Shown: positions 13,132-33,191, counted from the stretch's first letter. The stretch: 64,000 nt of DNA from Spirochaetia bacterium (GCA_965243555.1 OZ251575.1:864463-928462), one strand, 5' to 3'. The notes: generated by a model from the letters alone, not told the origin. Made by a program: numbers and translations.

Positions 13132-13132
13132 C

Positions 13133-13402: not shown

Positions 13403-13534
13403 GTGATACAGTCTTCGTCAAAAGCCCAAATAAAGGTACGTACACAGGAATGCCCTGCAGAGCCGCTCAGGCGATAGCGCGCCGCCGCGGCCGGCGGTGC
13501 GCCGTACGTACCAATCGAGGAGTTATCATAGGCC
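13403..13534. promoter_or_regulatory. Divergent intergenic region between the zinc-ribbon/portal operon (minus) and the terminase gene (plus).
   Basis: An AT-richer 132-bp stretch with a direct repeat TGATACA x2. GAGGAG lies 12 nt before the terminase ATG. Confidence 0.3.
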
Positions 13535-15800: not shown

Positions 15801-15830
15801 TATCGCCTATGATTACACTTATAGGCGATG
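15801..15830. promoter_or_regulatory. Inverted repeat TATCGCCTAT-N10-ATAGGCGATg overlapping the recombinase start codon and putative promoter (TTGACC at 15790).
   Basis: The arms match 9/10 bp. A -35-like TTGACC lies 5 bp upstream. Candidate operator or recombinase-binding site. Confidence 0.45.
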
Positions 15831-18464: not shown

Positions 18465-19102
18465 AGTTCCTCGCCTTCGTCGTCGTGCAGGGAGCGGCAC
18501 TCCTGCCACACCCGCACGGCATGCCGAATCCGCGGCTTGCCCATACGCCGCGCAAGGGCGGCGAGGCGGCCAAGGTCGAACAGTTCGGTCTGCTGGAATC
18601 GCATCTCCGCCATCCGGTCGACATCCCACGCGCCGGGCGTCAGGTGGAACAGGTCAAGCAGCGCCTTCTCCACCGTGGCGACGATTGCGTCGCTGCCCGC
18701 GACCCGGACGGTGCGGTACCCGAAGAAGAACTCCCGCTTCACGTTGCGGTAGCTGAACGTGCCGAGCCGGTTCGCGAATTCGCGCGGGGTGCGCGTGGTG
18801 ACGCTGGTGTAGACCGGCACGCTTTCGGGAATCACGCCGTAGAAGCTCAGCGCCCACGCGCCGCTCAGGTAGGACGGGGCGTACAACGCGTTGGCCAGCG
18901 CGGCCGGCGCCAGCGGCGCGCGCCGGTAGCGGTCGGCCAGCGTGTAGCGGCCGCGGCGCAGGGCGACCACCTTGCCGGCCCGGCCCCAGCGGTGGAGCTG
19001 GCTCACCACGCTCGCCCGCGGCGCCGCGCTGAGCTGGGTCACCGTCGCCAAGTCGAACCACGGCTCCGCGCCGAGCAGCTCCACGACCGTGTCAAATCTC
19101 AT
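18461..19102 (-). CDS. abiEi: AbiEi-family antitoxin / transcriptional regulator (213 aa).
   Basis: The N-terminal wHTH-like region and C-terminal domain fit AbiEi (COG5340-like). It is immediately upstream of, and overlapping, the AbiEii toxin gene. Confidence 0.7.
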   Translation of the reverse strand: MRFDTVVELLGAEPWFDLATVTQLSAAPRASVVSQLHRWGRAGKVVALRRGRYTLADRYRRAPLAPAALANALYAPSYLSGAWALSFYGVIPESVPVYTSVTTRTPREFANRLGTFSYRNVKREFFFGYRTVRVAGSDAIVATVEKALLDLFHLTPGAWDVDRMAEMRFQQTELFDLGRLAALARRMGKPRIRHAVRVWQECRSLHDDEGEEL

Positions 19103-19208: not shown

Positions 19209-20756
19209 TCAGCCGGCGGCCACCTCGAAGGCGGTCACGTTGCGAGTCGCGCGGCTGAACTCCACCCCGAGCAGGTGGATCGGCTCGCGCCCGTCCCGGT
19301 ACTTGGCGGCGTAGTCGCGCTCCCGCAACTGCGCCAGCGCGGTCCCCTCCCCCGCCTGCTCCGTTACCTTGAACTCGAACAGGTACACCTGCCCGCCGGC
19401 CCGCACCGCCATGTCCAGCCGCCCGACCGCGCTCGAATCCTCCACCACAATGTCATAGCCCAGCGCCGCGAAGTAGGAGTAGAACACGCTCGCGTAGTAG
19501 CCCTCGTAGCGGGCGATGTCGTTGTTGGAGTGCCACTCATACGGGATGCTCGCAAAGAAGGCGTGGAACAGCTCCCGCAGCCCGGCGCAGTCGGCCGCTT
19601 CCAGCAGGCGCGCCAGGCGGAAGCTGTTGGCCATCTGCCGGTCTCCGTCCCGCACCAGATGGCGCAACAGCACGTCGTTCAGGCTCTGCCGCACCTCCCG
19701 GTTCGGGTAGCCCAGCCGGTACACTGCCCTCCCGCCCAGCTCATCTTCCGCCTTGATCGTCAGGTAGCCGGTCTGGAACAGCAGCGCCTGGGTGCCTATG
19801 TGCTCCACGTCGAACGCCGACAGCAGCTCCTCGGTACCGACCATGTCGGCCAGCGACACGGTGGAGACTCGCCGCTCAAACAGCGTGTCGATCAGGAACG
19901 CCGGCGAGCCGGTCTCGAACCAGTGGGGCTTGAACTTGCGGCTGTCGAACAGCAGCAGCAGGTCAAACGGGTTGTACACCTTCTCGTCGCCCAGCCAGCA
20001 GTACCCGTTGTACCACTCGCGGATGCGATCGCGGTCCAGCCCCGGCAGCTCCGGGGCGAATACGGTGTCCAGGTCTTCTTCGGTGTAGCCGCAGATCGCC
20101 GAGTAGCGCGGGTCCAGCGTGAGGTCGGTGAGGTTGTTGAGGTCGGAGAACAGACTCATCTTGGAGAACTTGCTCACCCCGGTCAGGAAGGTAAAGCGCA
20201 CGTGCGCTTCACTGTCCTTGATCACCCCGTACAGACCGCGCAGGAAGGCGCGGTTGGCGCGGGCTACCTCGGGGGTTTCCAGCGCGTCCAGGATCGGCTT
20301 GTCGTACTCGTCCACCAGCACCGCCGCCTGCTGCCCGGTACGCTCGTGCAGGGCTTCCAGCAGGGATGCGAAACGGCCCGGCGCCGTCAGGTAGTCCGCC
20401 TCCACCCCGTTGCGCCGCTCCACGGCCGCGAGCTGCTCCATGACGTTGTCCCGCAACAGTCCCGGCTCCCTGAAACTGCCGCCGCCGAAGCTGAGCCGCA
20501 CCACGGGATGGCGCTGCGACCAGTCATGGCGTCCGTGGACGTGGAGCCCCTCGAACAATGCCTTGCTGCCCTCGAACAGCTCCTTGAGCGTGTCCAGAAA
20601 CAGACTCTTGCCGAACCGCCGCGGCCGCGACAGAAAGTAGTGCGTGCCCCCGTCGAGCAGACGTTCGACGTAGGGCGTCTTGTCCACGTAGTAACAATTC
20701 CGCTTGCGGAGCGTGCGGAAGGTCTGGATGCCGGTGGGCAGCCTGCGCCGGACCAT
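19209..20756 (-). CDS. Paralog A1: AAA-ATPase-like N-terminal domain plus C-terminal PD-(D/E)XK nuclease-like domain (~515 aa).
   Basis: N-terminus MVRRRLPTGIQTFRTLRKRNCYYVDKT..YFLSRPRRFGKS (the predicted-ATPase family signature). The C-terminus has D...FEFK (PD-(D/E)XK). I trimmed the track ORF to the Met homologous to the A2/A3 start. Confidence 0.7.
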   Translation of the reverse strand: MVRRRLPTGIQTFRTLRKRNCYYVDKTPYVERLLDGGTHYFLSRPRRFGKSLFLDTLKELFEGSKALFEGLHVHGRHDWSQRHPVVRLSFGGGSFREPGLLRDNVMEQLAAVERRNGVEADYLTAPGRFASLLEALHERTGQQAAVLVDEYDKPILDALETPEVARANRAFLRGLYGVIKDSEAHVRFTFLTGVSKFSKMSLFSDLNNLTDLTLDPRYSAICGYTEEDLDTVFAPELPGLDRDRIREWYNGYCWLGDEKVYNPFDLLLLFDSRKFKPHWFETGSPAFLIDTLFERRVSTVSLADMVGTEELLSAFDVEHIGTQALLFQTGYLTIKAEDELGGRAVYRLGYPNREVRQSLNDVLLRHLVRDGDRQMANSFRLARLLEAADCAGLRELFHAFFASIPYEWHSNNDIARYEGYYASVFYSYFAALGYDIVVEDSSAVGRLDMAVRAGGQVYLFEFKVTEQAGEGTALAQLRERDYAAKYRDGREPIHLLGVEFSRATRNVTAFEVAAG

Positions 20757-20769
20757 TCGTTCTCTTACC

Positions 20770-22662
20770 TCACACCCACGCCAGCAGCTCAAAGACGGTG
20801 TTGGCAAGCAACGTTTCGCCGTTGCCCACCAGGTAGACGATGTCCTTATCCGTATTAACCGTAGTGCCCGACCATTCCCGTTGTAACACTATCTTGACCC
20901 TGCGAACGGTGGCATCGTTCGTGGCCGACACCAGGTAGACGTTTGCGCCCAACCCGGTAACCCTTTGGTTCCACAGGACAGACGCCGCGAATCCCGTCCA
21001 CGGCAGAACCACTTCGGAGACTACCGCCGCACCGATCTTGACGCGAAACACGAGACCCAACCACGAATTCGGCAGCCGCCGCGGAACGTTCATCTCGCTT
21101 ACCCCACGCGCCGGTGACACCAGGTCGAATCCTGCGGGCGCCGTCCCCTCGATGACCCAGTTGACCGGCGGAAGCGTAGACGCGGAGTACAAGCCGGCGG
21201 CGGGCGACAGCGTCGCTATCAGCGCGCCGACGTGATTCGGCGTCCACGCCGCCGGCGTCTCGGTGCCGTCCGCAGCGACTTTGACCCACGAAAGCGTGCC
21301 GGCGGTCTCGTCCAGGCTCTTGACGTGCTGCTCGCGCGCCTCCGCCTGCAGCCGCGCCTTGCTCATGGTGCGGTAGCCGTACAACGACGCCTCAGGGTAT
21401 GCCGTAACCGCCTTCGACGCCGTAAACGCGGCCACGTAAAACCCGACGTCGCCCAAGTACAGAATCCCAGCAGCAGGGTCGTATGCCGCCCCCGTCAACC
21501 CGCGAAAGCCGGACCGGCCTGCCGTTACCTGCGAACCGGTGAGGGTAAGCCCCGGAACTTCTTTACCGGTGGCTACGTTGTAGGCGTACACCGCGTCTCC
21601 GCTGCCCCCGTAGATCAGCACGTCCCCTACGAACGTCGCAGCGCCGACCCCCTCCGTTCCCGGCAGCTTCACGTGCTTGGTAGCCGTGCCGCTCTTGAAC
21701 ACGCGCGCAAGACCGAACCCGTCAATCACCCACAGATCGTTGTCGTGCCATGCCATACACCACACGCTTCCCAACCTGCCAACGGCCAACTTGGAAACTT
21801 TGATCTCGTCCCCGGCCACCTCCTCGGGCCTTTGCTCAGCCGTTCCGGGGTGCGACAACCTGAACACCTTGATCGGCTTACGGTACCCGTCCGCCGTAAT
21901 CGCGAGCTTTTTGCTGGTGTGGTTGTAGGACAGTCCATGGACCGGAGCAACACCAGTCCCGGTGATGTCCGCGCCGGGAAACCTGCGACCGTTCTTGAAC
22001 GCGAAGACTCTGCCCGAACGAGTACTGCCAACGAGGACCACGCCATTCTCAACGACTTCCAAGGCGCCTGGCTTGATCCTGCCCAACTCAGTCGCATCAA
22101 TGTCCTTGCTGCTATCTCGGTTCCACCCCGTTACCGCGCCATGCGTGAGCCGAAAATTGATCCTCACGTATGCCGGGGCCTCAGTGCTCAGCACAGCAGG
22201 ATCGCCGCCAAGCGCCTCCGCGGTGACGATCGCCAGGGTATCGGTGGTCCCCGTGTCCTTGATCACCTTCTCAATGCTCTTCCTATCCGTCACCGCCGCC
22301 TCCGCAGTGGCGCCCATCTGCAAGATAAGCGCATCGACCGTGCCGGCGGCGAACAGGTTGGCCAGCGTCCGAGAGGCGTCATGCGGCAAAGTCGTCACCT
22401 TGAACTTGCCGGCGTCCCGGTTGCCGCTCGTACCCACGCGCACGTAGGAAAACTGCGCAGTCACCGCCCCGTCCGCGCTAATCGGGAACGTGCCCTGATA
22501 GGTCCGCGTCCGGGCGTTGTGCTCCAGCCGCACTACGTGAGGATCGGACTTCTGAATCGCCTCCAGACGCCACTCTTTGACCGGATCAAGCGCCCGTTGC
22601 GCGAACTTGTCGGCTGCGGCCAATTCACGGCCGGCTTGCGGCCGGGGATTGGTAACCGCCAC
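20770..22662 (-). CDS. Paralog B1: large protein (630 aa) with a beta-propeller-repeat body related to the phage tail protein, plus the conserved B-family C-terminal domain.
   Basis: GTG start per the track. The body shares repeats and the motif LSWVKVAADGTETPAAWTP with the 3931..7593 tail protein (NVLSWQDKAADGTTTPRQWTP). The C-terminal ~110 aa are homologous to B2 and B3. The 5' end sits out of frame behind a leader module. Confidence 0.55.
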   Translation of the reverse strand: MAVTNPRPQAGRELAAADKFAQRALDPVKEWRLEAIQKSDPHVVRLEHNARTRTYQGTFPISADGAVTAQFSYVRVGTSGNRDAGKFKVTTLPHDASRTLANLFAAGTVDALILQMGATAEAAVTDRKSIEKVIKDTGTTDTLAIVTAEALGGDPAVLSTEAPAYVRINFRLTHGAVTGWNRDSSKDIDATELGRIKPGALEVVENGVVLVGSTRSGRVFAFKNGRRFPGADITGTGVAPVHGLSYNHTSKKLAITADGYRKPIKVFRLSHPGTAEQRPEEVAGDEIKVSKLAVGRLGSVWCMAWHDNDLWVIDGFGLARVFKSGTATKHVKLPGTEGVGAATFVGDVLIYGGSGDAVYAYNVATGKEVPGLTLTGSQVTAGRSGFRGLTGAAYDPAAGILYLGDVGFYVAAFTASKAVTAYPEASLYGYRTMSKARLQAEAREQHVKSLDETAGTLSWVKVAADGTETPAAWTPNHVGALIATLSPAAGLYSASTLPPVNWVIEGTAPAGFDLVSPARGVSEMNVPRRLPNSWLGLVFRVKIGAAVVSEVVLPWTGFAASVLWNQRVTGLGANVYLVSATNDATVRRVKIVLQREWSGTTVNTDKDIVYLVGNGETLLANTVFELLAWV

Positions 22663-22820
22663 ACCTTCGGCTCGCCCGTAATCGCTACCGCCTGCGTCTC
22701 CTTCCCGCTCGAAATGATGACGTTCGTAGCCGCAAGCAGTGCCTCATTATGCCGCAGTGCAGCCTCGAACTCGGAGGGCTGTGGGTTCGATTGCCGTCTC
22801 GGCCCCGTAGGTCGCAGCAT
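22533..22820 (-). pseudogene. Leader-module ORF (MLRPTGPRRQSNPQPSEFEAALRHNE...) that runs out of frame into the B1 body.
   Basis: AGGAGG-N8-ATG leader near-identical to the B2 5' end. The reading frame is offset by 1 nt from the B1 frame. This may be a recombination junction, a frameshifted gene, or a site of programmed frameshifting. Confidence 0.35.
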
Positions 22821-22824
22821 CAGC
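22778..22824. repeat. Conserved leader-module core (type I) upstream of B1.
   Basis: About 47 bp (CGATTGCCGTCTCGGCCCCGTAGGTCGCAGCATCAGCTCCACCTCCT) near-identical to 24606..24652. It contains the RBS and start of the leader peptide. Confidence 0.7.
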
Positions 22825-23107
22825 TCCACCTCCTTGCATCTTTGCATCTTTGCGCAGCCGCGCCGTAGCGTGCCAGTTCAGACCCATTCGTATACCTCAA
22901 TGGTTGCTTGGGCCGGAATCTCATTGCCATTACCACGCACGTCAAGCTTGTGTCCGCGCGGTCCGGGTCGGCATCCGGTACCTTCGGCGTGCCCGGAATC
23001 GCTACCGCTACCGACTCCTTCCCGCTCGGAATGGTGACGTTCGCCGCCGCCGTAAGCAGTTGCTCGTCGTACCGTAGCGCCTGCTCGAACTCAGCCCGCC
23101 CTACCAC
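22820..23107 (-). pseudogene. Truncated B3-type 5' gene fragment (VGRAEFEQALRYDEQLL...DPDR, then divergent).
   Basis: It matches the B3 N-terminal ~50 aa and diverges after DPDR. It is preceded by a type II leader carrying ACG in place of the ATG. Confidence 0.4.
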
Positions 23108-23177
23108 TTGGCACTCGCCTCAATCTGCCCCCGCACCGGCGGCTGCGCTATCGGCCGCCGGTGGCGGGGCCGGGGGT

Positions 23178-23224
23178 TGATGGCCGTTTCGGCCCGTAGG
23201 GTCGCAACGTCAGGTCCACCTCCT
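23178..23224. repeat. Conserved leader-module core (type II, with start codon mutated to ACG) upstream of the truncated B fragment.
   Basis: Near-identical to 29628..29677. Confidence 0.7.
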
Positions 23225-24638
23225 ATACCCATGCGCGCAATTCGAAAGTGGTATTGGTCTTGATAGGCGTGTTGTTGCCAATTACAAATAGCGCATCCTT
23301 GCGTGGACGGATGTACTCTCGCTGCAGCGCCAACTTGATGTTGCGCCTCGTCCTGTCATCGGTCGCATTGATGATGTAAACTGATGTACCCAAATGGTCT
23401 TCGACTTCGCTTTGCCAGGCTGATCCTGTCCGGAAAGGCAACCACGGGACGTACACCCTCTCTATTACCTTCACCCCGACCTTCACCACGACGACCAACC
23501 CCAACCAGGATTCCGGAAGCACCCTGGGAACGTTCATCGAACCGAAGACATGCGGCGGGCCGACCCGGTCGAAGCCCGTCGGAATGCCGCTTGAAAACAC
23601 CCAGTCGGCTCCGGGGCGCGCGCTAGCCCCTGGCGTTCCCGCCGGCCACTCTAGTGTTGCTACCAAGGCCCCCACGTGAGTCCTCGGGGCCGCGTCCGTG
23701 GGTGAAAGGGATACGCCAAGGTCCGCGGTGATGCGGAACGTGCGAGACTCCGCTGCTCCCTGGTAGGTCCAGTAGTAGCCGGTGGTGTTGTTGGCGTTGC
23801 GGCCAAGGTAGAAGTGAACTTCGCCGAGCTTGACGTTCGACCGGTACACGCCTACGCCGCCGCCGATCTCCAGCCCCTCCACGGGGTCGCCAACTTCCCA
23901 ACTCGCCACCGCCGCAAGCTCCGAGAGAAAGACAATCTCGGTGATGTCGTGCGTCCTATTATTGTCGGTGGTGAAGCCAATATCGTCGGTCCTGCCGCCG
24001 CCGGTGATCGTCAGGGTCAGCGACACGTACAGCTCTCCGCGGTTGTAGTCGTCCAGGTCCAATGGCGTGCTGAACGGAATCAGCGCGGCACCACTAACTT
24101 GGTTGTCGGAGCTGTCATTCACGTCAAGGGCAGCGATGGTGGCGCGATCTTCCAGCACGGTGAGGCGCGGAACAGGGGGCAGCTTTACCGCCGCGATCTT
24201 CGACGCGTTCGAACGGCGCGCCCACGGTTCAAGGTCAATCGAAGACACCGTGATCGCTACCGAGTAGGTGCCCGCCCGATCCGCGGAGAACAGGAACTGC
24301 GAATCGGTCGACCGCGCCAGCATGCAGAGCGTGCTGCCCATCGAATGCACGACGGCGTTCTTTGAATTCAGCTCCGCGCCGCGCGTAACTACCGGCTTCG
24401 CCAGCAAGGCCGACAGGTCGAACCGCACGGCGCTGACGCCCACCTTCCATATCACCTCACGGTCCGGGTCGGCATCCGGCACCTTCGGACTGTCCGTGAT
24501 CAATGCCGCCTGCGTCTCCGACCCGTTTTGAATGGTCACGCTCTTCGCCGCAGGCCATGGCTCGTTATGCCGTAGCGCCGCCTCGAACTTGGAGGGCTGT
24601 GAGTTCGATTGCCGTCTCGGCCCCGTAGGTCGCAACAT
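23223..24638 (-). CDS. Paralog B2 (~471 aa): fused leader, B-type body, and conserved C-terminal domain.
   Basis: AGGAGG lies 8 nt before the ATG at 24638. The N-terminus is MLRPTGPRRQSNSQPSKFEAALRHNE. The body is homologous to B3. The C-terminus is homologous to B1 and B3 (NVPRVLPESWLGLVV...FELRAWV). Confidence 0.55.
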   Translation of the reverse strand: MLRPTGPRRQSNSQPSKFEAALRHNEPWPAAKSVTIQNGSETQAALITDSPKVPDADPDREVIWKVGVSAVRFDLSALLAKPVVTRGAELNSKNAVVHSMGSTLCMLARSTDSQFLFSADRAGTYSVAITVSSIDLEPWARRSNASKIAAVKLPPVPRLTVLEDRATIAALDVNDSSDNQVSGAALIPFSTPLDLDDYNRGELYVSLTLTITGGGRTDDIGFTTDNNRTHDITEIVFLSELAAVASWEVGDPVEGLEIGGGVGVYRSNVKLGEVHFYLGRNANNTTGYYWTYQGAAESRTFRITADLGVSLSPTDAAPRTHVGALVATLEWPAGTPGASARPGADWVFSSGIPTGFDRVGPPHVFGSMNVPRVLPESWLGLVVVVKVGVKVIERVYVPWLPFRTGSAWQSEVEDHLGTSVYIINATDDRTRRNIKLALQREYIRPRKDALFVIGNNTPIKTNTTFELRAWV

Positions 24639-24652
24639 CAGGTCCACCTCCT
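24606..24652. repeat. Conserved leader-module core (type I) at the B2 5' end.
   Basis: Matches 22778..22824. Confidence 0.7.
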
Positions 24653-24717
24653 TACATCTCTCTGTGCCGATAGTAGCTCACCTCGCCGTCCACCGCCACC
24701 GTGCCACCCACCGCAAT

Positions 24718-26583
24718 CTAGTCGTTGTCCAGGATGGTGACGGTCGCCGTGCACCGCCCCCCGCAGGTTACGTTGGTACTGTGAGGCCGATCATCAGTTG
24801 GGGTCAGGCCGATTTCCTCCAGATCGCGCGTGCTGAGCGGGCCGATGTGCAGCTGGAACGTCTCCGTCTCTTCTTTGACGAGATCGCCGACTATGCGAAA
24901 CTGAATTTCTTGTGAACACCGAGGGTCATCGTCGCCCGGCGCACGACTGCAAGGGGGGTTCCCGGTGAAGTAGCCCCAAACAAAGTCGATGATTCCGCTA
25001 CGTAAATTAATAGGAAAAAGAATCGTGTAGTCGGTGCCAGAGCAGCTTCCCGAAGGGGTGTGCTGCGTCCGGGGTGAGGTGCACGGGGTTGCCGTGCCCG
25101 GCGTAGCCCAGTATTTGAAATACAAGTGCTCGGGGATTGAGGTCACATTAAGGTATATCTTGACCTGTACCCATCCGTTCTCGTAGCCTTCGGTTAAAGT
25201 ATCGTCGCGTTCCGTAAAGGTATAGGTCAGGTCGGCGAACGAGATCGTCGGCGGCGTCTCCTCGGCCGGTGGAGGGACTGGGGCCGGCGGCTCCGCGGTT
25301 GGCGGCGCCGGCTGCTCGGCCGGTGGCGGCGCTGGGGCGGTGGTGAACGACCACACCTTGCCAAAGCCCTCTAACCCGCTTTCGTTCAAGGCATCCACCA
25401 TCCAATAGTAGCGCGTTTCGGGCGCCAGCTCCGCCGACGTGGGGATCCTCAAGAAGGTAGACGTGGTTCGAGTCGACCTGTTCCGCCAAAGGAGCTCACT
25501 TGTGGTGCTCCAGTACACATTGTAGTGGGTAGCGCGGGGCGCGGCGGCCCAACTCAAAAGCGGCCCGGCAACCGTCACGCCGGTCGCCCCGTCGCGCGGC
25601 TGCGGGTTGCTGGCATATCCGGGAGCGCGTATGGTGGTGAACGACCACACGTTGCCGCGGATGGTGCCGGCTTCGGTCTTTACGTCCACCCGCCAGTAAT
25701 AGCGCGTTTCCCACAGCCGAGGCGCCCAGGCGCCAACCTCATAGGAGTTGTTCACGGTATTGAGCGGCCATTCCGTACCCTCAAGGCCGTCCGCGGGGAG
25801 ATCGTTCGTGGTGCCCATGTAGAAGTCGTAGCTGAGAGCGCCGGGCGCGGCGTCCCAACTGAAAGTTACTGCGCCGCGGCTCACGCCGGTCGCCCCGTTG
25901 CGGGGCGACGGGTTCCTGGCAGCTCCGGGAGGGCCGGTTGCGGGCGGCGGAGCACCGTCGCCCGGCGGCGGACTCGGAGCCGGCGGCGTCTCATCGCCCG
26001 GGGCCGGACCTGGGGCGGGCGGCGTTTCATCGTCGCGCGGCGACGGACCCACGGTCGGCGGCGCGGGCCGGCCGGCGGGGATGGTCGGCGCCACGTCGTC
26101 CGGCAGGGTTTCCAGGTCGAAGTCATCCGGCAGGTCGATCACTCGCGCTATGCACTCGTCGTTGGTGTTGACCACGCAGCTCGAGCCGTCGGCGCGGCGG
26201 CTGAGGACGTACAACCGATTACCGCCGGGGTAACGGATCACGATCAGATAGTACTGCGACTGCTGCGCCTGCTCGGTCCGGCCGTCCGGCACCGACAAGC
26301 CGGCCTGCAGCGACTGATTCGCGGGGTCCATGCAGGTGGCCGGCGCGGTGGCGCCGCCCATGTGCAGCTTGTCGGAGACGATCGCGCCGTGGACTCCCGC
26401 GCCGCGGTCGAGCAGCCGAATTGCCGAGTCGTCGCACGAGGCCTGCGGCGCGGCCGGCGCCGGGTTCGCCGCAGTCTCCGGCTCCGGGTCCGGGGTGACC
26501 GCCGCCCCGCAGGCGGCCAGGATTGCGGTCAGCGCGAACAGCGCCGCCCACCGTGTCCACAAGCGTTTCGTTGTCTTTATCAT
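24718..26583 (-). CDS. Paralog L1: secreted lipoprotein (~621 aa) with a Pro-rich linker, FN3-like repeats, and a C-terminal Calx-beta-like domain.
   Basis: Signal peptide plus lipobox (LTAILAAC). YYWRVD...VWSFTT FN3-like motifs occur twice. The C-terminal TVTILDND resembles a Calx-beta end. The first ~230 aa are near-identical to L2. I trimmed the start to MIKTTKRLW. Confidence 0.6.
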   Translation of the reverse strand: MIKTTKRLWTRWAALFALTAILAACGAAVTPDPEPETAANPAPAAPQASCDDSAIRLLDRGAGVHGAIVSDKLHMGGATAPATCMDPANQSLQAGLSVPDGRTEQAQQSQYYLIVIRYPGGNRLYVLSRRADGSSCVVNTNDECIARVIDLPDDFDLETLPDDVAPTIPAGRPAPPTVGPSPRDDETPPAPGPAPGDETPPAPSPPPGDGAPPPATGPPGAARNPSPRNGATGVSRGAVTFSWDAAPGALSYDFYMGTTNDLPADGLEGTEWPLNTVNNSYEVGAWAPRLWETRYYWRVDVKTEAGTIRGNVWSFTTIRAPGYASNPQPRDGATGVTVAGPLLSWAAAPRATHYNVYWSTTSELLWRNRSTRTTSTFLRIPTSAELAPETRYYWMVDALNESGLEGFGKVWSFTTAPAPPPAEQPAPPTAEPPAPVPPPAEETPPTISFADLTYTFTERDDTLTEGYENGWVQVKIYLNVTSIPEHLYFKYWATPGTATPCTSPRTQHTPSGSCSGTDYTILFPINLRSGIIDFVWGYFTGNPPCSRAPGDDDPRCSQEIQFRIVGDLVKEETETFQLHIGPLSTRDLEEIGLTPTDDRPHSTNVTCGGRCTATVTILDND

Positions 26584-26663
26584 CGTCAGTCTCCTCTCGG
26601 AACGGTCGCCAGTGCCCTGGGTATAACCCAGCGAGCGAGCGAATCTCCTGCGCGGCTCTGGTC

Positions 26664-28076
26664 CTAGTCGTCGTCTATGATCGTGAGTTTCGCCCGGCAC
26701 CGGCCGCAGGTCACCGGGAAACCTTTATGAGGGATGACTTCTATGAATACCGTCTCATTTTCTTCCTTTACCCGATCGCCGATAATGACTGGCCCATGAC
26801 TAAACGGCCCGCAGACTCGGTGTGGCGAACCTTCAGGAATATTGCGGCACGGCTCCATCTCATAGTGCGCGGAGAAATCAACCCAGTCGACTCCTTCCGC
26901 CACCCTCATTTGAAGATCGAAGTGCCCGTCGGTCGCCGTGCCCCCGCCCATCTTAAAGAAAATATGGAGGTCCCGGGCCGCCGTGACGGGCGAACTCAAG
27001 GTCACCTCGAAGTCGACATCAAAATACCCGTCGTCGCCTTCGAGAACGCTCTGATCGGCAGAAAGCGATATCGTCGGCTGCGCTGGCGTCTCCTCGGCCG
27101 GTGGAGGGGCTGGAACTGGGGCCGGCGGTGGCGCCGCGGCAGGAGCGGTGGTGAACGACCACACGGCGCCGCGGGTGGTCCCGGCTTCGTTCTTTGCGTC
27201 CACCCGCCAGTAGTAGACCGTTTCGGCATCCAGATCCGCCGAGGCTGAGATCCTCAAGGCCGTGAACGAGGTGTTGATCGGCGTATCCAGGTCGGTGTTC
27301 TCGGCGCCCCAGTACACGTCGTAGCTGAGCGCGCGCGGCGCGGCGGCCCAACTCAAGAGCGGACCGCCAACCGTCACGCCGGTCGCCGCGTCACTCGGCT
27401 GCGGACTGGTGGCAGCTCCGGGAGGCGTGCCGGCTGTGGGCGGCGGCGCACCGTCGCCCGGCGGCGGACTCGGAGCCGGCGGCGTCTCATCACCCGGGGC
27501 CGGACCTGGGGCGGGCGGCGTTTCATCGTCGCCCGGCGACGGACCCACGGTCGGCGGCGCGGGCCGGCCGGCGGGGATGGTCGGCGCTATGTCCTCCGGC
27601 AGGGTTTCGAGGTTGAAGTCATCCGGCAGGTCGGTCACTCGCGCTATGCACTCGTCGTTGGTGTCGACCACGCAGCTCGTGCCGTCGGCGCGGCGGCTGA
27701 GGACGTACAGCCGATTACCGCCGGGGTAGCGGATCACGATCAGATAGTACTGCGACTGCTGCGCCTGCTCGGTCCGGCCGTCCGGCACCGACAAGCCGGC
27801 CAGCAGCGACTGATTCGCGGGGTCCATGCAGGTGGCCGGCGCGGTGGCGCCGCCCATGTGCAGCTTGTCGGAGACGATCGCGCCGTGGACTCCCGCGCCG
27901 CGTTCGAGCACGCTGATCGCCAGGTCGTCGCACGAGGCCTGCCGCGCGGGCGGCTCCAGGTTCGCCGGCGGCTCCAGGTCCGGGGTGACCGCCGCCCCGC
28001 AGGCGGCCAGGATTGCAGTCAGCGCAAGCAACGCCGCCCACCGTGTCCACAACCACAATGCTTTCGTTGTCTTCAT
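26664..28076 (-). CDS. Paralog L2: secreted lipoprotein (470 aa) with an FN3-like repeat and a C-terminal Calx-beta-like domain.
   Basis: Start MKTTKALWLWTRWAALLALTAILAAC (lipobox). C-terminal motif KLTIIDDD. The N-terminal half is near-identical to L1. The C-terminal region is lower in GC. Confidence 0.6.
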   Translation of the reverse strand: MKTTKALWLWTRWAALLALTAILAACGAAVTPDLEPPANLEPPARQASCDDLAISVLERGAGVHGAIVSDKLHMGGATAPATCMDPANQSLLAGLSVPDGRTEQAQQSQYYLIVIRYPGGNRLYVLSRRADGTSCVVDTNDECIARVTDLPDDFNLETLPEDIAPTIPAGRPAPPTVGPSPGDDETPPAPGPAPGDETPPAPSPPPGDGAPPPTAGTPPGAATSPQPSDAATGVTVGGPLLSWAAAPRALSYDVYWGAENTDLDTPINTSFTALRISASADLDAETVYYWRVDAKNEAGTTRGAVWSFTTAPAAAPPPAPVPAPPPAEETPAQPTISLSADQSVLEGDDGYFDVDFEVTLSSPVTAARDLHIFFKMGGGTATDGHFDLQMRVAEGVDWVDFSAHYEMEPCRNIPEGSPHRVCGPFSHGPVIIGDRVKEENETVFIEVIPHKGFPVTCGRCRAKLTIIDDD

Positions 28077-28107
28077 CGTCAGTCTCCTCTCCGCACTAAC
28101 GGGGTTG

Positions 28108-29556
28108 TCATATCCACTGGAGCAGCTCGATGGAGGTGCCGGCCTTGATCTGCTCGGCGTTGCCCACGACCTCGAGGCGGTCCTTCGTCGTACTGGCCCA
28201 CTCGCGTTGCAGCACCAGCTTCACGGTGCGTGCCGTGGAGTCGTCACTTACGAGCAAATGGAATACGTTCGTGCCGAAGGGGGAGGGTCCTATCCGACTG
28301 TCCCAGGCAACGTCTTCGTGGATGGGGACCCAGGGAAGGAATACCTGCGACACCGTATTGGTGGTGCCCACCTTCGTCCGCACTACCACGCCCGCCATGT
28401 TATCCGGCAGCACCCTCGGAACGTTCAACTGCCCGTTGCTGCCTCCGGTCGCTTCGAAATCACGGGGAGCCCCGCTTTGCACCACCCAGGCCGCAGCCGG
28501 GCGCGCATTCGCCGCTAGCGTGCCGGCAGGAATGTCAAGCTTGGCAATCAACGGTCCGACGTGTCCGGTAGACGAAGTAGCCGCGGGCGCGTCAGTCCGC
28601 GAGAACGACACCTCCATCGTGGCGGTCAGTGTCACATCCGACCCGCTCGTCCCGCCACCGGAGTAGCGCAGCAGGTAACCGAGCTCGTTGTTGGCGTTCT
28701 TGGCAAAGTAGAACGACAGCAGACCCAGTTGGTTGAAGCTATCGTGCAGGTACACGCTGGAACCGACCGGCTCCCCGTGAAAGGGCCCACTGCTCACGTA
28801 CGTACCCAGTGCAGATACATCCGATGCCAACACTACTCCGTCGAACGTGTAGGTACGGTCCTCGTTCGTGCCGAAACCGGCCACTAGCACCGAACGATCG
28901 TCGAAGGTAACCGTCATCACCACGTGCAACTCGCCGGTCCGGTGTTCGTCCAGATCGAATGCCGGCGCCAGCGCCCTGAACGAGCCGGTTGACATGCTGT
29001 TGGTGTTATGGATGCGCATCCCGACAGCCCTCCCGGCGTGCAGAATCTGCAGCCCGGTCAGCTTCCGCACGCGCGCGTCGACCTGTGCCTGCGTCAGCCA
29101 CGGCGACGGCAGATTCGCCGCCGCGACCTTCGTCGCGTTCGACCGGCGCGCCCACGGTTCAAGGTCAATCGAGGACACCGCGAGCTCCACCGAGTAGGTG
29201 TCCGCCCGGTCCGCGGAGAACAGGAACTGCGAAGCGGCCGTCTCCGACGCGGCCGTCCGCGCCAGCATGCAGAGCGTGCTGCCCACCGAGAACACGACGG
29301 AGTTGGTTGAATCCAAGACCGTGGTCGTCGTAACTGTCACCGCCGGCTTCGCCCGCAACGCGGACAGGTCGAACCGCACGGTGCTGCCGTCCACCGTCCA
29401 TATCACCTCACGGTCCGGGTCGGCAGCCGGCACCTCCGGCGTGCCCGGAATCGCTACCACTACCGATTCCTTCCCGCTCGCAATGGTAACGGCCGTAGCC
29501 GGGAGCAGTTGCTCGTCGTACCGTAGCGCCCCCTCGAACTCGGCACGCGCTACCAT
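28108..29556 (-). CDS. Paralog B3 (482 aa): B2-like body and conserved C-terminal domain, preceded by a leader uORF.
   Basis: Its ATG lies within AAATGGTAG and overlaps the uORF stop. The N-terminus MVARAEFEGALRYDEQLL is homologous to the B2 segment SKFEAALRHNE. The body (STLCMLAR..SSIDLEPWARRSNA) is homologous to B2. The conserved C-terminus ends ..ELLQWI. Confidence 0.55.
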   Translation of the reverse strand: MVARAEFEGALRYDEQLLPATAVTIASGKESVVVAIPGTPEVPAADPDREVIWTVDGSTVRFDLSALRAKPAVTVTTTTVLDSTNSVVFSVGSTLCMLARTAASETAASQFLFSADRADTYSVELAVSSIDLEPWARRSNATKVAAANLPSPWLTQAQVDARVRKLTGLQILHAGRAVGMRIHNTNSMSTGSFRALAPAFDLDEHRTGELHVVMTVTFDDRSVLVAGFGTNEDRTYTFDGVVLASDVSALGTYVSSGPFHGEPVGSSVYLHDSFNQLGLLSFYFAKNANNELGYLLRYSGGGTSGSDVTLTATMEVSFSRTDAPAATSSTGHVGPLIAKLDIPAGTLAANARPAAAWVVQSGAPRDFEATGGSNGQLNVPRVLPDNMAGVVVRTKVGTTNTVSQVFLPWVPIHEDVAWDSRIGPSPFGTNVFHLLVSDDSTARTVKLVLQREWASTTKDRLEVVGNAEQIKAGTSIELLQWI

Positions 29557-29663
29557 TTGGCACCCGCCTCAATCCGCTCCCGCACCGGCGGCGGCGCTAT
29601 CAGCCGGCCGCGGCGGGGGCTGGGGCCCGATGGCCGTTTCGGCCCCGTAGTAGGTCGCAACAT
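29550..29663 (-). CDS. Leader uORF (37 codons, MLRPTTGPKRPSGPSPRRGRLIAPPPVRERIEAGAKW) upstream of B3, translationally coupled to it.
   Basis: AGGAGG lies 8 nt before the ATG. Its stop TAG overlaps the B3 start (ATGGTAG). It is the same leader as B2, with a ~75-nt insertion. Confidence 0.35.
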   Translation of the reverse strand: MLRPTTGPKRPSGPSPRRGRLIAPPPVRERIEAGAKW

Positions 29664-29677
29664 CAGGTCCGCCTCCT
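29628..29677. repeat. Conserved leader-module core (type II) at the 5' end of the B3 uORF.
   Basis: Matches 23178..23224. Confidence 0.7.
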
Positions 29678-29767
29678 GCATCCGTGCCCGGTCGTCGGAC
29701 AGTGCGAGCTCCAGGATTGGGTGTATCCATGCGCGTGTCAACCCGGCAAGCCCGGCCGGCCGGCGGG

Positions 29768-31315
29768 TCAGGCGTCGTCGGCCTCGAAGGCGGTCAGGGT
29801 GCGCGTCTTGCGGCTGAACTCCACGCCGATCAGGTGGATGGACTTACCGCGGCCCAGGTACTTGGCGGCGTAGCCGCGCTCCCGCAGCTGCGCCAGCGCT
29901 GCCCCCTCCCCCGCCTGTTCCACCACCTTGAACTCGAACAGGTAGACGTGGCCGCCGGTCCGCACCGCCATGTCCAGCCGCCCAACCGCGCTCGACTCCT
30001 CCACCACAATGTCATAGCCCAACGCCGCGAAGTAGGAGTAGAACACGCTGGCGTAGTAGCCCTCGTAGCGCGCGATGTCGTTGTTGACGTGCCACTCATA
30101 CGGGATGCTCGCAAAGAACGCTTGGAAAAGCTCCCGCAGACCGGCGCAGTCGGCCGCTTTCAGCAGGCGCGCCAGGCGGATTCTGTCCGCCGTCTGCGCC
30201 CGGGCGCCCGGCGCCAGGCGGCGCAACAGCACGCGGTTCAGGCTCTGCCGTACTTCCCGGTTCGGATAGCCCAGCCGGTACACCTGCTCCCCGTCCAGGT
30301 CCTCCTCGTCCGTGATCGTCAGATAGCCGGTCTGGAACAGCAGCGCCTCGGTGCCTATCTCCTCCACGTCGAACGCCGACAGCAGCTCACGAGTGCCGAC
30401 CATGTCCTCCAGCGAAACGGTGGAGACCTGCCGCTCGAACAGCGTGTCGACCAGGAACTTCGGCGAGCCGGTCTCGAACCAGTAGGCATCGAACTCGCGG
30501 CTGTCGAACAGCAGCAGCAGGTCAAACGGGTTGTACACCTTCTCATCGCCGCGCCAGCAATAGCCGTTGTACCACTCGCGGATGCGCTCGCGGTCCAGCC
30601 CGGCCAGCTCCGGGGCGAACACCGTGTCCAAGTCTTCCTCGGTGTAGCCACAGATCGCGGAGTAGCGCTGGTCCAGCGTGATGTCGGTGAGGTTATTGAG
30701 CTGCGAGAACAGGTTCACCTTGGAGAACTTGCTTACGCCGGTCAGCAACGCAAACCGTATGCGCGCGTCGCTCGCCTTGATCACCCCGTACACGTTGCGC
30801 AGAATGTCGCGGTTGGCGCTCGCCACGGCCGGCGTGCCCAGCATGTCCAGGATCGGCTTGTCGTATTCGTCCACCAGCACAACCACCCGCCGCCCGCTCC
30901 GTTGGTGCAGCACTTCCAGCAGGTGCGCGAAGCGGCCCGGCACCGTAAGAGCGTCCGTCTCCACCCCGTGGCGCCGTTCCTCGGCCGCGAGCAGGTCCAC
31001 GAGGCTGTCCTCCAACAGGTTCGGCTGCCGGTAGTCGCCGCCGGCAAAGTCCAGCCGCACCACCGGATTGGGCTCGCCCCAGGTCCAACCGGCATGGACG
31101 CGGAGCCCCTCGAACAGCTTCTCGCTGCCTTCGAACAGCTCCTTCATGGTGTCGACGAGTAAGCTCTTCCCGAACCGCCGCGGCCGCGACAGGAAGTAGC
31201 GCGTCCCTTCGGCGACCAGACGTTCGATGAAGGCGGTCTTGTCGACGTAGTAGCAGTTCTCCTCCCGCAGCACGCGGAAACTCTGGATGCCGATCGGCAA
31301 CCGGCGCTTGACCAT
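29768..31315 (-). CDS. Paralog A2: AAA-ATPase-like plus PD-(D/E)XK protein (515 aa).
   Basis: MVKRRLPIGIQSF...YFLSRPRRFGKS. The C-terminal 150 aa are almost identical to A3. Confidence 0.7.
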   Translation of the reverse strand: MVKRRLPIGIQSFRVLREENCYYVDKTAFIERLVAEGTRYFLSRPRRFGKSLLVDTMKELFEGSEKLFEGLRVHAGWTWGEPNPVVRLDFAGGDYRQPNLLEDSLVDLLAAEERRHGVETDALTVPGRFAHLLEVLHQRSGRRVVVLVDEYDKPILDMLGTPAVASANRDILRNVYGVIKASDARIRFALLTGVSKFSKVNLFSQLNNLTDITLDQRYSAICGYTEEDLDTVFAPELAGLDRERIREWYNGYCWRGDEKVYNPFDLLLLFDSREFDAYWFETGSPKFLVDTLFERQVSTVSLEDMVGTRELLSAFDVEEIGTEALLFQTGYLTITDEEDLDGEQVYRLGYPNREVRQSLNRVLLRRLAPGARAQTADRIRLARLLKAADCAGLRELFQAFFASIPYEWHVNNDIARYEGYYASVFYSYFAALGYDIVVEESSAVGRLDMAVRTGGHVYLFEFKVVEQAGEGAALAQLRERGYAAKYLGRGKSIHLIGVEFSRKTRTLTAFEADDA

Positions 31316-31339
31316 CAGCCCATCACACCATCGAACAGG

Positions 31340-32884
31340 TCAGGCGTCCGCCGCCTCGAAGGCGGTCAGGGTGCGCGTCTCGCGGCTGAACTCCACGCCA
31401 ATCAGGTGGATGGACTTACCGCGGCCCCGGTACTTGGCGGCGTAGCCGCGCTCCCGCAGCTGCGCCAGCGCCGCCCCCTCCCCCGCCTGCTCCACCACCT
31501 TGAACTCAAACAGGTAGACGTGGCCGCCGGTGCGCACCGCCATGTCCAGCCGCCCAACCGCGCTCGACTCCTCCACCACAATGTCATAGCCCAGCGCCGC
31601 GAAGTAGGAATAGAACACGCTGGCGTAGTACCCCTCATAACGGGCTATGTCGTTGTTGGTATGCCACTCATACGGGATGCTCGCAAAGAACGCTTGGAAA
31701 AGCTCCTGCAGGCCGGCGCAGTCGGCCGCTTCGAGCAGGCGCTCCAGGTGCGTGCTGTTGGCCATCTGCCGCGCATCGTCCCGCACCAGATGGAGCAGCA
31801 GATGCTCATTCAGGCTCTGCCGCACCTCCCGGTTCGGATAGCCCAGCCGGTACACCGTTCTCCGGCCGCGCTTCACTTCCGTGATCGTCAGGTAGCCGGT
31901 CTGGAACAGCAGCGCCTCGGTGCTTACGTGATCCACGTCGAACGCCGACAGCAGGCGCTCGGTGCCCACCATCTGCTCCAACGATACGGAGGAGACCCGC
32001 CGCTTGAACAGCGTCTCCACCAGAAACGCCGGCGAGCCGGTCTCGAACCAGTGGGCGTCGAACGTGCGGCGGCGCAGCAGCAGTAGCACGTCGAACGGGT
32101 TGTAGACCTTCTCCTGGCCCAGCCAGCTATAGCCGTTGTACCAGGCGCGCACCTCCTCCCGGTCCAGTCCTCCGAGCTCCGGCGCGAACACGGTGTCCAA
32201 GTCGCCTTCCGTGTAGCCGCAGATCGACGAGTAGGCCGGCTCCAGCGTGATGTCGATAAGGTTATTGAGCTGCGAGAACAGGCTCATCTTGGAGAACTTG
32301 CTCACCCCGGTCAGAAACGTGAACCGTACGTGCGCGTCGGAGTCCTTGATCACGCCGTACACGCCGCGCAGGAAGCCGCGGTTGGCGCGGGCCACCGGCG
32401 GCGTCTCCAGCGCATCCAGGATCGGTTTGTCGTATTCGTCCACCAGCACCACGACCCGCCGGCCGGTCCGTTCATGCAGGGCTTCCAGCAGGTGCGCGAA
32501 GCGGCCCGGAACCGTGCGGGAGTGCGCATCCACCCCGTGGCGCCGTTCCATCGCCTCGATCTGCTCCAGGACGTTGTCCGCCACCAAGTACGGCTCGGTG
32601 AAGCTGCCGCCGGCGAAACTCAGCCGCACCACCGGATTGGGCTCGCCCCAGGTCCAGCCGGGGTGGATGCGGAGCCCCTTGAACAGCTTCTCGTTGCCCT
32701 CGAACAGCTCCTTCAGCGTATCCAGGAACAGGCTCTTGCCGAACCGCCGCGGCCGCGACAGGAAGTAGTGCGTACCTTCGTCGACCAAGCGTTCAATGAA
32801 GGCCGTCTTGTCGACGTAGTAGCAGTTCCGCTCCCGGATCCTGCGGAAGCTCTGGATGCCGATCGGCAACCGGCGCTTGACCAT
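31340..32884 (-). CDS. Paralog A3: AAA-ATPase-like plus PD-(D/E)XK protein (514 aa).
   Basis: Same family as A2. The first ~40 nt of the CDS and the ~25 nt upstream are identical to A2. Confidence 0.7.
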   Translation of the reverse strand: MVKRRLPIGIQSFRRIRERNCYYVDKTAFIERLVDEGTHYFLSRPRRFGKSLFLDTLKELFEGNEKLFKGLRIHPGWTWGEPNPVVRLSFAGGSFTEPYLVADNVLEQIEAMERRHGVDAHSRTVPGRFAHLLEALHERTGRRVVVLVDEYDKPILDALETPPVARANRGFLRGVYGVIKDSDAHVRFTFLTGVSKFSKMSLFSQLNNLIDITLEPAYSSICGYTEGDLDTVFAPELGGLDREEVRAWYNGYSWLGQEKVYNPFDVLLLLRRRTFDAHWFETGSPAFLVETLFKRRVSSVSLEQMVGTERLLSAFDVDHVSTEALLFQTGYLTITEVKRGRRTVYRLGYPNREVRQSLNEHLLLHLVRDDARQMANSTHLERLLEAADCAGLQELFQAFFASIPYEWHTNNDIARYEGYYASVFYSYFAALGYDIVVEESSAVGRLDMAVRTGGHVYLFEFKVVEQAGEGAALAQLRERGYAAKYRGRGKSIHLIGVEFSRETRTLTAFEAADA

Positions 32885-32921: not shown

Positions 32922-33191
32922 TTATTCGTTGAGGCGCGTCAGGGCCCAGATCAGCGCGAGCGCGCCGAATCCGGCGGCGAACAGGTTGACGCCGTTGAAG
33001 TGCGCCAGCCGTTCGATCACCCCGGCGAGCAACTGATCCGCCACGCCGCCGAGCACGGCGCCGATCAGGCCGACGACGAGCGCGCCCCAGAAGTCGCCGA
33101 GGACGCGCCGCCGCAGGATGAAGCGCCAGAAGATGGCGGCCGCCAGCCCGACGGTTACGTAGGTCAGGCCAACGTCGACGTACCGGAACAC
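32922..33191 (-). CDS. GlsB/YeaQ/YmgE-family stress-response membrane protein (89 aa).
   Basis: Two hydrophobic segments with the G..G...G spacing typical of the transglycosylase-associated YeaQ/YmgE family. Confidence 0.65.
   Translation of the reverse strand: MFRYVDVGLTYVTVGLAAAIFWRFILRRRVLGDFWGALVVGLIGAVLGGVADQLLAGVIERLAHFNGVNLFAAGFGALALIWALTRLNE

Follow-up and report, generated by a model that had tools for sequence, protein, structure and literature searches.

What kind of locus sets three families of paralogous genes side by side on one strand, with some segments nearly identical and others strongly diverged? The question is raised by a ~14-kb array at positions 19209–32884 of a 64,000-nucleotide stretch of DNA from a Spirochaetia bacterium (GCA_965243555.1 OZ251575.1:864463–928462), which we call the window and number from its first letter. 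The array contains three ATPase-nuclease genes (A1–A3), three genes for fiber-like proteins (B1–B3), and two lipoprotein genes (L1 and L2). The original prediction, made from the sequence alone, took it to be a hypervariable or cassette-shuffling locus. We favor an explanation in which an element of at least 33 kb has been integrated at a site where relatives lack it, and the array forms its distal accessory end, a region that varies fibers and lipoproteins. Directly observed are the mosaic pattern of identity, the presence of an insertion, the differing arrangements in other contigs, and the homology that links B to adaptor–fiber fusion proteins. The array is a real recombination hot spot without dedicated gene-switching machinery, and it is probably a pile-up of three independently expanding gene families and not one system.

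Open reading frame (ORF) calls and third-position GC place eight long ORFs, one upstream ORF (uORF), and several fragments on the minus strand between 19209 and 32884. The one-strand order of families that had been described (A-A-uORF-B-L-L-B-fragments-B-A) is correct; read in the direction of the genes, it is A1-A2-(uORF)-B1-L1-L2-B2-(fragments)-B3-A3. The GC content of the array is ~62–66%, compared with 70–75% in the adjoining core genes.

Within each family, divergence changes abruptly along the gene. The A copies are 76–78% identical in amino acids (aa) and 83–85% in nucleotides (nt). A1 and A2 are 85% identical in nucleotides overall and 96–97% across the last ~350 nt, whereas the 3' end of A3 is just 85–92% identical to either, and the identity of A2 to A3 peaks at 90–92% at nt 700–900. 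L1 and L2 are 90–99% identical over the 5' ~700 nt as a whole (95–99% at nt 300–700) and fall below 50% at the 3' end. B1 and B2 are 75–91% identical through the first ~480 nt and then only ~45–60%; the 3' ~330 nt of the B genes are 50–62% identical (40–45% at the protein level), and B3 has in common with B1 and B2 only the last ~155–175 residues (40–45% amino acid identity). A near-identical module had been proposed for every family. It is present in the 5' part of L and at the 3' end of A1 and A2 but not at the 3' end of A3 or at either end of B.

The steps in identity are accompanied by conflicting genealogies. The three possible groupings of A1, A2, and A3 are backed by 138, 109, and 107 sites, and no single tree fits the gene; the sites that favor each grouping are clustered along it (chi-square 94, a value reached by 0 of 5000 permutations). 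Synonymous divergence (dS) between B1 and B2 is 0.28 in the N-terminal 160 codons and 1.23 in the remainder, and between L1 and L2 it is 0.06 at codons 60–230, 0.50 at codons 320–480, and 2.0 at codons 480–634. Because dS steps so sharply at the module boundaries, the paralogs appear to exchange by ordinary recombination. When the B genes of the window are compared with metagenome B genes, the breakpoints of nucleotide homology cluster at codons ~141–162. The mosaic identity described for each family is thus upheld by windowed identity, by the clustered A sites, and by the steps in dS.

Could these genes simply be old, decaying duplicates without ongoing exchange, in which the conserved modules are merely under stronger purifying selection? 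B3 is truncated and another B copy is now a stub, as decay would have it, and divergence is high across most of B and in the 3' half of L. However, it is dS, and not just amino acid divergence, that falls 4- to 30-fold inside the shared modules, and the ratio of nonsynonymous to synonymous substitution (dN/dS) of the shared B handle is ~0.9, which is not the mark of strong purifying selection. Because of that ratio, the DNA-level conservation of the handle appears to reflect recent common ancestry through recombination or conversion and not purifying selection. The A gene also has no single tree, and close relatives differ in arrangement. The test set in advance, uniform divergence together with a fixed arrangement, failed on both counts. 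We agree with the original prediction that simple decay is inadequate and consider that explanation very improbable.

The boundary of the array on the core side is also the boundary of an insertion. Four related contigs (83–90% identical in DNA and 78–88% in the TPR protein) are collinear with the core side of the window through a GreA-fusion gene, recA, scpAB, rluB, cmk, rpsA, the TPR gene, a 223-aa gene, and an 89-aa gene (32922–33191, minus strand), which is the last syntenic core gene; the relatives then continue with URO-D and tsaD. Homology to all four ends at 32926, which places the right junction of the strain-specific insertion at 32922–32926, at the stop codon of the 89-aa gene, and the start codon of A1 follows 37 nt after that stop. 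Because the four relatives are collinear and then continue with URO-D and tsaD, an empty site, positions 1–32925 can be read as an insertion of at least 32.9 kb that comprises prophage, integrase, AbiE pair, and array, with its left end beyond the window.

The content of the insertion is in keeping with the flanks that had been described. Genes for a portal, a major head protein, a large terminase, and an SU10-like adaptor lie at 3.9–15.3 kb, and a tyrosine recombinase of the Phage_integrase family (15828–16817) lies 2.4 kb from the array. As context, an AbiEi/AbiEii pair (17661–19102, minus strand; PADLOC AbiEi 3.7e-44 and AbiEii 7.8e-65; Pfam AbiEii) stands directly downstream of A3. The other flank consists of the conserved core genes rpsA, cmk, scpAB, and recA, with recA 6.5 kb away. 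When an att-like repeat of the right junction was sought, only the 5' ends common to A1 and A2 were recovered, and a scan of IMG/VR with the prophage portal found nothing. Two features of the insertion are unusual: the portal gene (minus strand) and the large-terminase gene (plus strand) are divergent (11284–15289), and the integrase sits mid-insertion and not at an end. Because of these two features, the insertion may be two elements in tandem.

Related genomes that do carry A, B, or L genes carry them in other orders and other places. At least five other arrangements are found in metagenome contigs of the same lineage: A, a 121-aa gene, a B3-type gene of 822 aa, and then core genes in contig L003; AAA_15, A, a 744-aa gene, a B gene of 626 aa, and L in contig L006; A, a B3-type gene, a 129-aa gene, B, L, and L in contig L091; A, L, a B3-type gene, and an inverted L in contig L092; and atpG, a frameshifted B, L, and atpD in contig L090. 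The A2/B1 junction of the window (29746/29745) corresponds to contig L006 minus its 744-aa gene, which is itself a B variant with the leader joined directly to a SIDLEPWARRSNA motif. B is followed directly by L in four contexts (the window and contigs L006, L090, and L091). The recurrent linkages are limited to this B-L adjacency and, inside this one lineage, to A upstream of B or L. With divergence that is stepwise and relatives that either lack the locus or differ in its order or place, the description of the locus as hypervariable with module exchange stands.

The arrangement in contig L090 deserves a separate comment. At 4875–8316 (PANK22-1_SAMN12290282 scaffold_2686), the frameshifted B gene and the L gene lie in operon orientation between atpG and atpD, and the ATP synthase operon is otherwise intact. 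A related metagenome-assembled genome (MAG; locus L088) has no insertion between atpG and atpD, and its L genes come just after atpC.

What, then, are the B proteins? B1 (482 aa, 28108–29556, minus strand) consists of an N-terminal handle (aa ~20–127), a helical neck, and two β-sandwich (jelly-roll) domains. B2 (23223–24638, minus strand) is an intact free-standing gene of 471 aa counted from its ATG, is identical to P0014 from a 4.97-Mb NCBI contig, and is close to B1 in the N-terminal handle only. B3 (20770–22662, minus strand; 630 aa from a GTG) is composed of a β-sandwich, a 5-bladed β-propeller, and a B-type C-terminal module. The original description of B as a propeller protein is therefore right for B3 only, as B1 and B2 carry jelly-roll domains. 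The jelly-rolls have lectin-like and TNF-like folds, and the receptor-binding protein of phage phi11 also uses a 5-bladed propeller. A BFVD fold search with B1 returned jelly-roll capsid proteins only, at low TM, and these matches were discarded. In the alignment of B relatives, the conserved N-terminal handle spans ~140 residues, ends at an invariant SSIDLEPWARRSNA, and is followed by variable parts. The B proteins have no signal peptide in their sequences.

Relatives of B are rare. A search of 5.8 billion clusters gave 45 proteins, nearly all from one ENA metagenome series, plus P0014, and a B-family profile matched 510 clusters among 1.84 billion representatives. B1–B3 have no match in Pfam, PHROGs, PADLOC, or NCBIfam, and when B1–B3 were taken together with nine long homologs, the only Pfam or PHROG match was SU10_adaptor in P0198. 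Sequence searches of solved structures with B1, B3, A1, the adaptor, L1, and L2 gave nothing useful.

The connection to phage tails, which had been proposed for B, comes from fusion proteins. Many of the profile matches are 700–2100 aa in length, with the B handle starting from about residue 250 or with B modules at the C terminus. In P0198, a Pfam SU10_adaptor domain is followed by B modules, and in P0199 an opening region 43% identical to the adaptor of the window is followed by a complete B module. The adaptor of the window is a 1281-aa prophage tail protein with a long C-terminal extension (3931–7776, minus strand; Pfam SU10_adaptor 6.3e-7). Its residues 62–438 are 43% identical to P0199 and 36% identical to P0198, both of which continue into B modules; its own extension shares segments with B3, and homologs elsewhere bear a complete B module in that position. 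Residues 1–170 of B3 resemble part of the adaptor (32% identity over 178 aa). A more distant homolog of B, P0017, has a capsid/protease pair on one side and a portal-like gene on the other. Because of the P0198 and P0199 fusions, the profile matches, the similarity of B3 to the adaptor, and the context of P0017, B appears to be the free-standing form of the fiber moiety of SU10-like adaptor–fiber fusion proteins. The B proteins would then serve as alternative receptor-binding fibers of this or a related phage particle. A fiber-module family that is found both adaptor-fused and free-standing, that is recurrently paired with a lipoprotein family, and that also occurs at nonphage sites has not been described before.

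Deletion and replacement have also shaped the B genes. B3 is a 5'-truncated derivative of a gene type of 802–835 aa that carries the N-terminal handle and is intact in metagenomes. Some genes of this type end in the B C-terminal module and others in a short ...MTQAQYDA...YVIVG tail. In P0032, P0033, and P0041–P0044 (alignment columns 860–892), a short ...PIVKMTQAQYDA..AANTI...LYVIVG tail replaces the 150-residue C-terminal module. This short tail (PIVKMTQAQYDA) presumably resembles a motif frequent at the ends of phage fiber proteins.

The truncated and out-of-frame leader and N-terminal fragments that had been reported between family members are indeed present, between B2 and B3, as two stubs that each consist of a leader and N-terminal codons (22663–23222, minus strand). 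The first, a remnant of a third B-type gene (22867–23222), consists of a leader and ~50 codons of the N terminus that run directly into the final ~21 codons (DVRGNGNEIPAQATIEVYEWV and the stop). Compared with the intact 626-aa gene of contigs L006 and L007, its N-terminal part is 87.5% and its C-terminal part is 94% identical in nucleotides. By this match at both ends, the remnant is best explained as an internal-deletion derivative of a P0013-like 626-aa gene. The second (22663–22841) is a leader with ~55 codons of a B2-like N terminus, out of frame with the B3 body downstream.

The leaders of the B genes are conserved. Each B gene is preceded by a ribosome-binding-site-like AGGAGG and by a promoter-like element resembling TTGACA-N17-TAnnCT. 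In the B1 leader, translation and leader alignment identify a uORF of 37 codons (29550–29663, minus strand), which follows an AGGAGG and whose stop overlaps the start codon of B1 (ATGGTAG). In B2-type genes, the codons of this leader continue in frame into B itself, and contig L090 has a uORF laid out in the same way ahead of its B gene (~4910–5040). B1-type uORFs have 37–44 codons, begin with MLRP, and overlap the B start; the uORF in contig L090 runs a few codons past that start. The overlap suggests translational coupling that arose by a 71-nt insertion. Because no Rfam family matched in the array or the window, the leader is no known RNA; it reads as a ribosome-binding site with an N-terminal peptide or uORF. 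Scans for terminators and promoters gave counts at or under the shuffle expectation.

The L genes are modular in a different way. The parts of L1 (470 aa, 26664–28076, minus strand) are a signal peptide whose lipobox is LAAC, an N-terminal module that contains Cys and is conserved, linkers rich in Pro, and a C-terminal part that varies; read by eye, the lipobox is MKTTKALWLWTRWAALLALTAILAAC before a G, and the same motif is present in L2. L2 (24718–26586, minus strand; 622 aa from a conserved Met) is a paralog by its identity to L1 and by dS. The family has more than 149 members, with at least five copies in the source genome and variable C-terminal domains. FN3 and Calx-beta domains had been attributed to the lipoproteins. 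These are clear in homologs, which have fn3, Ig, Calx-beta, and discoidin domains, but L1 and L2 themselves give only sub-threshold domain matches (for L2, weak Ig_Rha78A_N and Fn3-like matches), and nothing in Pfam, PHROGs, PADLOC, or NCBIfam passes curated thresholds for L. A 4.6-Mb "Spirochaetia bacterium" MAG has four L genes; two of them lie on either side of an AAA_14/DUF4143 gene immediately past the ATP synthase operon, without B, and elsewhere L is found without A or B beside core genes. L is a lineage-specific lipoprotein family; in the favored reading of the array, its members would sit at the surface, keep the same N-terminal module, exchange their adhesin-like C termini, and often be encoded directly downstream of B. 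Borne by a prophage, they might function, for example, in receptor masking or exclusion. An ATPase with AAA_14 and DUF4143 domains recurs near L or B in relatives (L088, 8635–9789; L089, 17614–18816; L001, 6986–8140; L003, 9295–10449) and is absent from the window array.

In one rather unlikely reading, B-L pairs would be mobile cassettes in which a receptor-binding fiber travels with its cognate surface lipoprotein. In another, the pairs would be domesticated, phage-derived modules of the cell surface for adhesion or for interaction with an animal host or kin cells, with no tie to any present phage particle, and the array would be only one of several chromosomal sites where they accumulate. 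B is followed by L in four independent contexts, one of them inside the ATP synthase operon; L forms a family of several chromosomal copies whose domains are of the adhesin type; and the B jelly-rolls are lectin-like and TNF-like, all of which would suit such a function. B, however, has no signal peptide, and the copy in the atp operon is frameshifted. Other B modules are fused to phage adaptors or lie in phage head modules, and the window array itself is within a prophage-bearing insertion. We think domestication unlikely, if worth keeping in mind, and continue to favor a prophage-borne array of fibers and lipoproteins.

The A genes have a different history. A1 (514 aa, 31340–32884, minus strand) and A2 (515 aa, 29768–31315, minus strand) are separated by a 24-nt spacer, and A3 (19209–20756, minus strand; 515 aa from a conserved Met), the last gene of the array, lies 13 nt past B3. 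All three match PF09820 (AAA-ATPase_like; E values of 3.5e-59 to 1.4e-62) and PF08011 (PDDEXK_9; 1.3e-20 to 3.9e-22) with full profile coverage, the values for A1 being 1.4e-62 and 3.9e-22, and the proposed identification of A as an AAA-ATPase_like/PD-(D/E)XK protein is confirmed for all three copies. The translations of A1, A2, and A3 contain the motifs SRPRRFGKSL, VLVDEYDKP, and RLDMAV...YLFEFKV, which we read as a variant Walker A (RPRRFGKS), a Walker B (DEYD), and a D..EFK nuclease motif. The DUF1703 family has been defined by a variant Walker A, a Walker B, and PD-(D/E)XK motifs (PMC1913061), and its expansions in Cardinium cCpun and a midge Rickettsia consist of multi-copy, horizontally acquired, recombining paralogs of unknown function (PMC6387759).

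Relatives of A are numerous and widely distributed. A2 is 90% identical to the A gene of contig L006, and among GTDB species representatives at least 570 stretches have 67–79% amino acid identity to A1, in MAGs labeled Spirochaetia, Latescibacterota, Vicinamibacterales, Binatia, Gammaproteobacteria, Gemmatimonadetes, and others; a scan of IMG/VR with A found nothing. Among A relatives, the median nucleotide identity is 74%, and both borders of nucleotide similarity in 2278 locus pairs lie no more than ~15 nt from the start or stop codon of A. The A loci have no terminal repeats and no conserved neighbor, and 15 of them contain two to four co-located copies or fragments. The gene seems to spread between phyla as a bare ORF. 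In A1/A2 and A2/A3 comparisons, codons 80–120 and 360–400 (in A1, ~32525–32644 and ~31685–31804) have a dN/dS of 1.1–1.5, compared with 0.1–0.5 elsewhere, although these windows are small and noisy. The patches may reflect diversifying selection on specificity regions. The borders of cross-phylum similarity at the ends of the coding sequence and the short patches with dN/dS above 1 are new facts about DUF1703.

Do A, B, and L act together? The original prediction allowed that they might, and one could imagine a single defense or exclusion system beside AbiE, with A as the effector, B as a sensor or decoy, and L at the envelope. An ATPase joined to a nuclease is typical of defense and the array adjoins AbiE; A is upstream of B or L in the window and in contigs L003, L006, L091, and L092; contig L006 has an AAA_15/AAA_21 ATPase beside A; and the short patches with elevated dN/dS in A would fit a defense role. 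On the other hand, no A, B, or L protein matches any model in PADLOC-DB 2.0. A relative of B or L is found in none of 80 A loci fetched from other genomes (L008–L087), and the neighbors of A in these loci are not conserved: no recurrent partner emerged from 113 flanking proteins spread over 144 Pfam families, a census that also led us to reject A as the conserved partner of some other gene. L occurs alone beside core genes, the B-L pair in the atp operon has no A, copy numbers are unequal, and some members are truncated. A single three-part system is thus improbable, and this part of the original prediction is not sustained. Because no B or L is found in the 80 loci, no neighbor recurs, and similarity is bounded by the coding sequence, A appears to be a stand-alone, promiscuous gene and no component of an A-B-L system.

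The A genes might also be more than passengers. DUF1703 might be a self-propagating recombination-hot-spot gene that seeds the movement and reshuffling of B-L cassettes between loci and genomes, either actively through its ATPase-nuclease or passively as dispersed repeats of high identity. We regard this as rather unlikely. If true, DUF1703 would gain a function, and there would be a new form of cassette mobility that needs neither transposase nor integrase and extends to insertion into essential operons.

Is the variation programmed? Such a mechanism could be gene conversion of the pilE/pilS type, shuffling by a tyrosine recombinase, or mutagenesis by a diversity-generating retroelement (DGR). 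A tyrosine recombinase does lie 2.4 kb from the array, partial out-of-frame 5' copies do lie between members, and the conserved 5' modules could serve as exchange sites. The likeness to the Mu G-segment or a shufflon that had been suggested does not hold, however, as all members are co-oriented and there are no inverted repeats other than three weak inverted pairs (75–78%, 32–36 nt), none of which is at a module border; the borders are not marked by short repeats either. The suggested likeness to pilE/pilS does not hold either. Each of B1, B2, L1, L2, and A1–A3 is a complete gene that begins with a start of its own, an AGGAGG and promoter-like elements precede the B genes, and the fragments were left by internal deletions in genes whose intact forms are found elsewhere. 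No template/variable repeat pair is present in 18–34 kb, and no reverse transcriptase was found among the scanned ORFs, some small ORFs being unscanned. Programmed variation is, in our judgment, the least probable of the explanations considered here. An integron was likewise rejected: the cassettes are large, the integrase is convergent and not divergent, and there are no attC-like repeats.

The explanation that we favor can be put together as follows. One element would contain the array together with a podovirus-like prophage, a tyrosine recombinase, and an AbiE pair. In the array, the B genes would be free-standing tail-fiber or receptor-binding modules, each with its own promoter-like element and ribosome-binding site, built from a ~140-aa handle that runs to the SSIDLEPWARRSNA junction, a body that can be exchanged (a jelly-roll or a 5-bladed propeller), and a C-terminal module that can be exchanged as well; related phages would carry this B module covalently fused behind an SU10-like adaptor. 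The L genes would encode surface lipoproteins that often travel directly downstream of B. The A genes would be bare ORFs that move between phyla and tend to form tandem runs, perhaps as selfish or defense-type passengers whose repeated copies also supply homology for rearrangement. The conserved modules would be the sites at which ordinary homologous recombination, gene conversion, and unequal or illegitimate exchange generate diversity in the form of chimeric genes, duplications, and deletion remnants.

Several observations weigh against this explanation. No relative of B is found in IMG/VR or among GTDB species representatives, and the adaptor of the window itself is missed by the B profile, with only the B3 body matching it (32%). 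The B genes lie outside the prophage structural module, 4–14 kb beyond the integrase and AbiE, and the top structural matches of the B3 propeller are nonphage proteins. L homologs are found among the core genes of a relative that lacks B, such that L need not be phage-related. Finally, a pure-passenger model does not predict that A precedes B or L both in the window and in four of the metagenome arrangements from this lineage. Should the favored explanation be correct, a symbiont lineage maintains, at the margin of a prophage island, a stock of fiber bodies and lipoprotein heads that can be interchanged, and several alternative states of the locus have already been seen in metagenome contigs of the same lineage.

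The host appears to be a spirochete-like bacterium and is probably sponge-associated, as several of the MAGs that carry A relatives probably are; MAG series names such as SB0661 denote sponge metagenomes, and this attribution is partly verified. On the core side of the window, a gene at 42490–45252 encodes a 920-aa protein with C-terminal GreA/GreB domains. Its GC content (0.61) is lower than that of its surroundings, and it is conserved in relatives; the homolog in L095 carries HTH_GRAD and GRAD_C in a precomputed annotation.

Overall, the locus resembles several known systems in part. In the mosaic fiber loci of temperate phages (lambda stf/tfa, P2/Mu/P1, and T-even gp37/38), a conserved N-terminal attachment part is combined with exchangeable distal receptor-binding domains. 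The array is similar in its exchange by recombination at conserved junctions, in having paralogs and remnants side by side, and in having moron-type genes near a prophage end. It differs in that the B genes lie beyond the integrase and AbiE, outside the structural operon, in that B is free-standing where relatives fuse the module to an adaptor, and in that B is also found off phage, as in the atp operon; the array also has neither an invertible segment nor a gene for a tail-fiber assembly chaperone. The SU10-type adaptor (PF24175) is shared, as the domain is present in the 1281-aa protein of the window and in P0198, and B modules stand behind it in P0198 and P0199. B1–B3, in contrast, have no adaptor domain, and the extension of the window adaptor is B3-like and not B1- or B2-like.

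Two precedents bear on the lipoproteins. In phage T5, the receptor-binding protein pb5 is encoded beside the receptor-blocking lipoprotein llp. The parallel with B-L pairs is an analogy only, as the L proteins are 450–700 aa with adhesin-like domains compared with a lipoprotein of ~60 aa, and L has chromosomal paralogs without B. The cp32 prophages of Borrelia carry the recombining lipoprotein paralog families erp and mlp. Here too a spirochete lineage has prophage-associated, multi-copy surface lipoproteins that diversify by recombination, but there is no sequence relationship, and L is chromosomal and fiber-linked, with no plasmid context.

The defining tests of invertible segments, pilE/pilS-type loci, DGRs, and integrons all give a negative answer for this locus. 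Unlike Mu Gin/G, P1 Cin/C, and the R64 shufflon, the array has no opposed segments with inverted sites. Those systems also have a dedicated invertase next to the segment; the integrase of the window (15828–16817) might be a candidate, but AbiE stands between it and the array, which contains no sites that match it. Unlike pilE/pilS, the array is not one expressed locus with promoterless silent copies.

The closest precedent for the A genes is the DUF1703 expansions (PMC6387759, PMC1913061), which have the same two domains and the same Walker A variant and are likewise multi-copy, horizontally acquired, and subject to intragenic recombination. The cCpun copies, however, average 39% amino acid identity, compared with 76–78% among the A copies of the window. 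The window copies are in tandem or flank cargo genes, and their type has close relatives (67–79% amino acid identity) in many phyla, with similarity bounded by the coding sequence. Current ideas stand: mosaic fibers, moron lipoproteins, and recombining DUF1703 paralogs are each already known.

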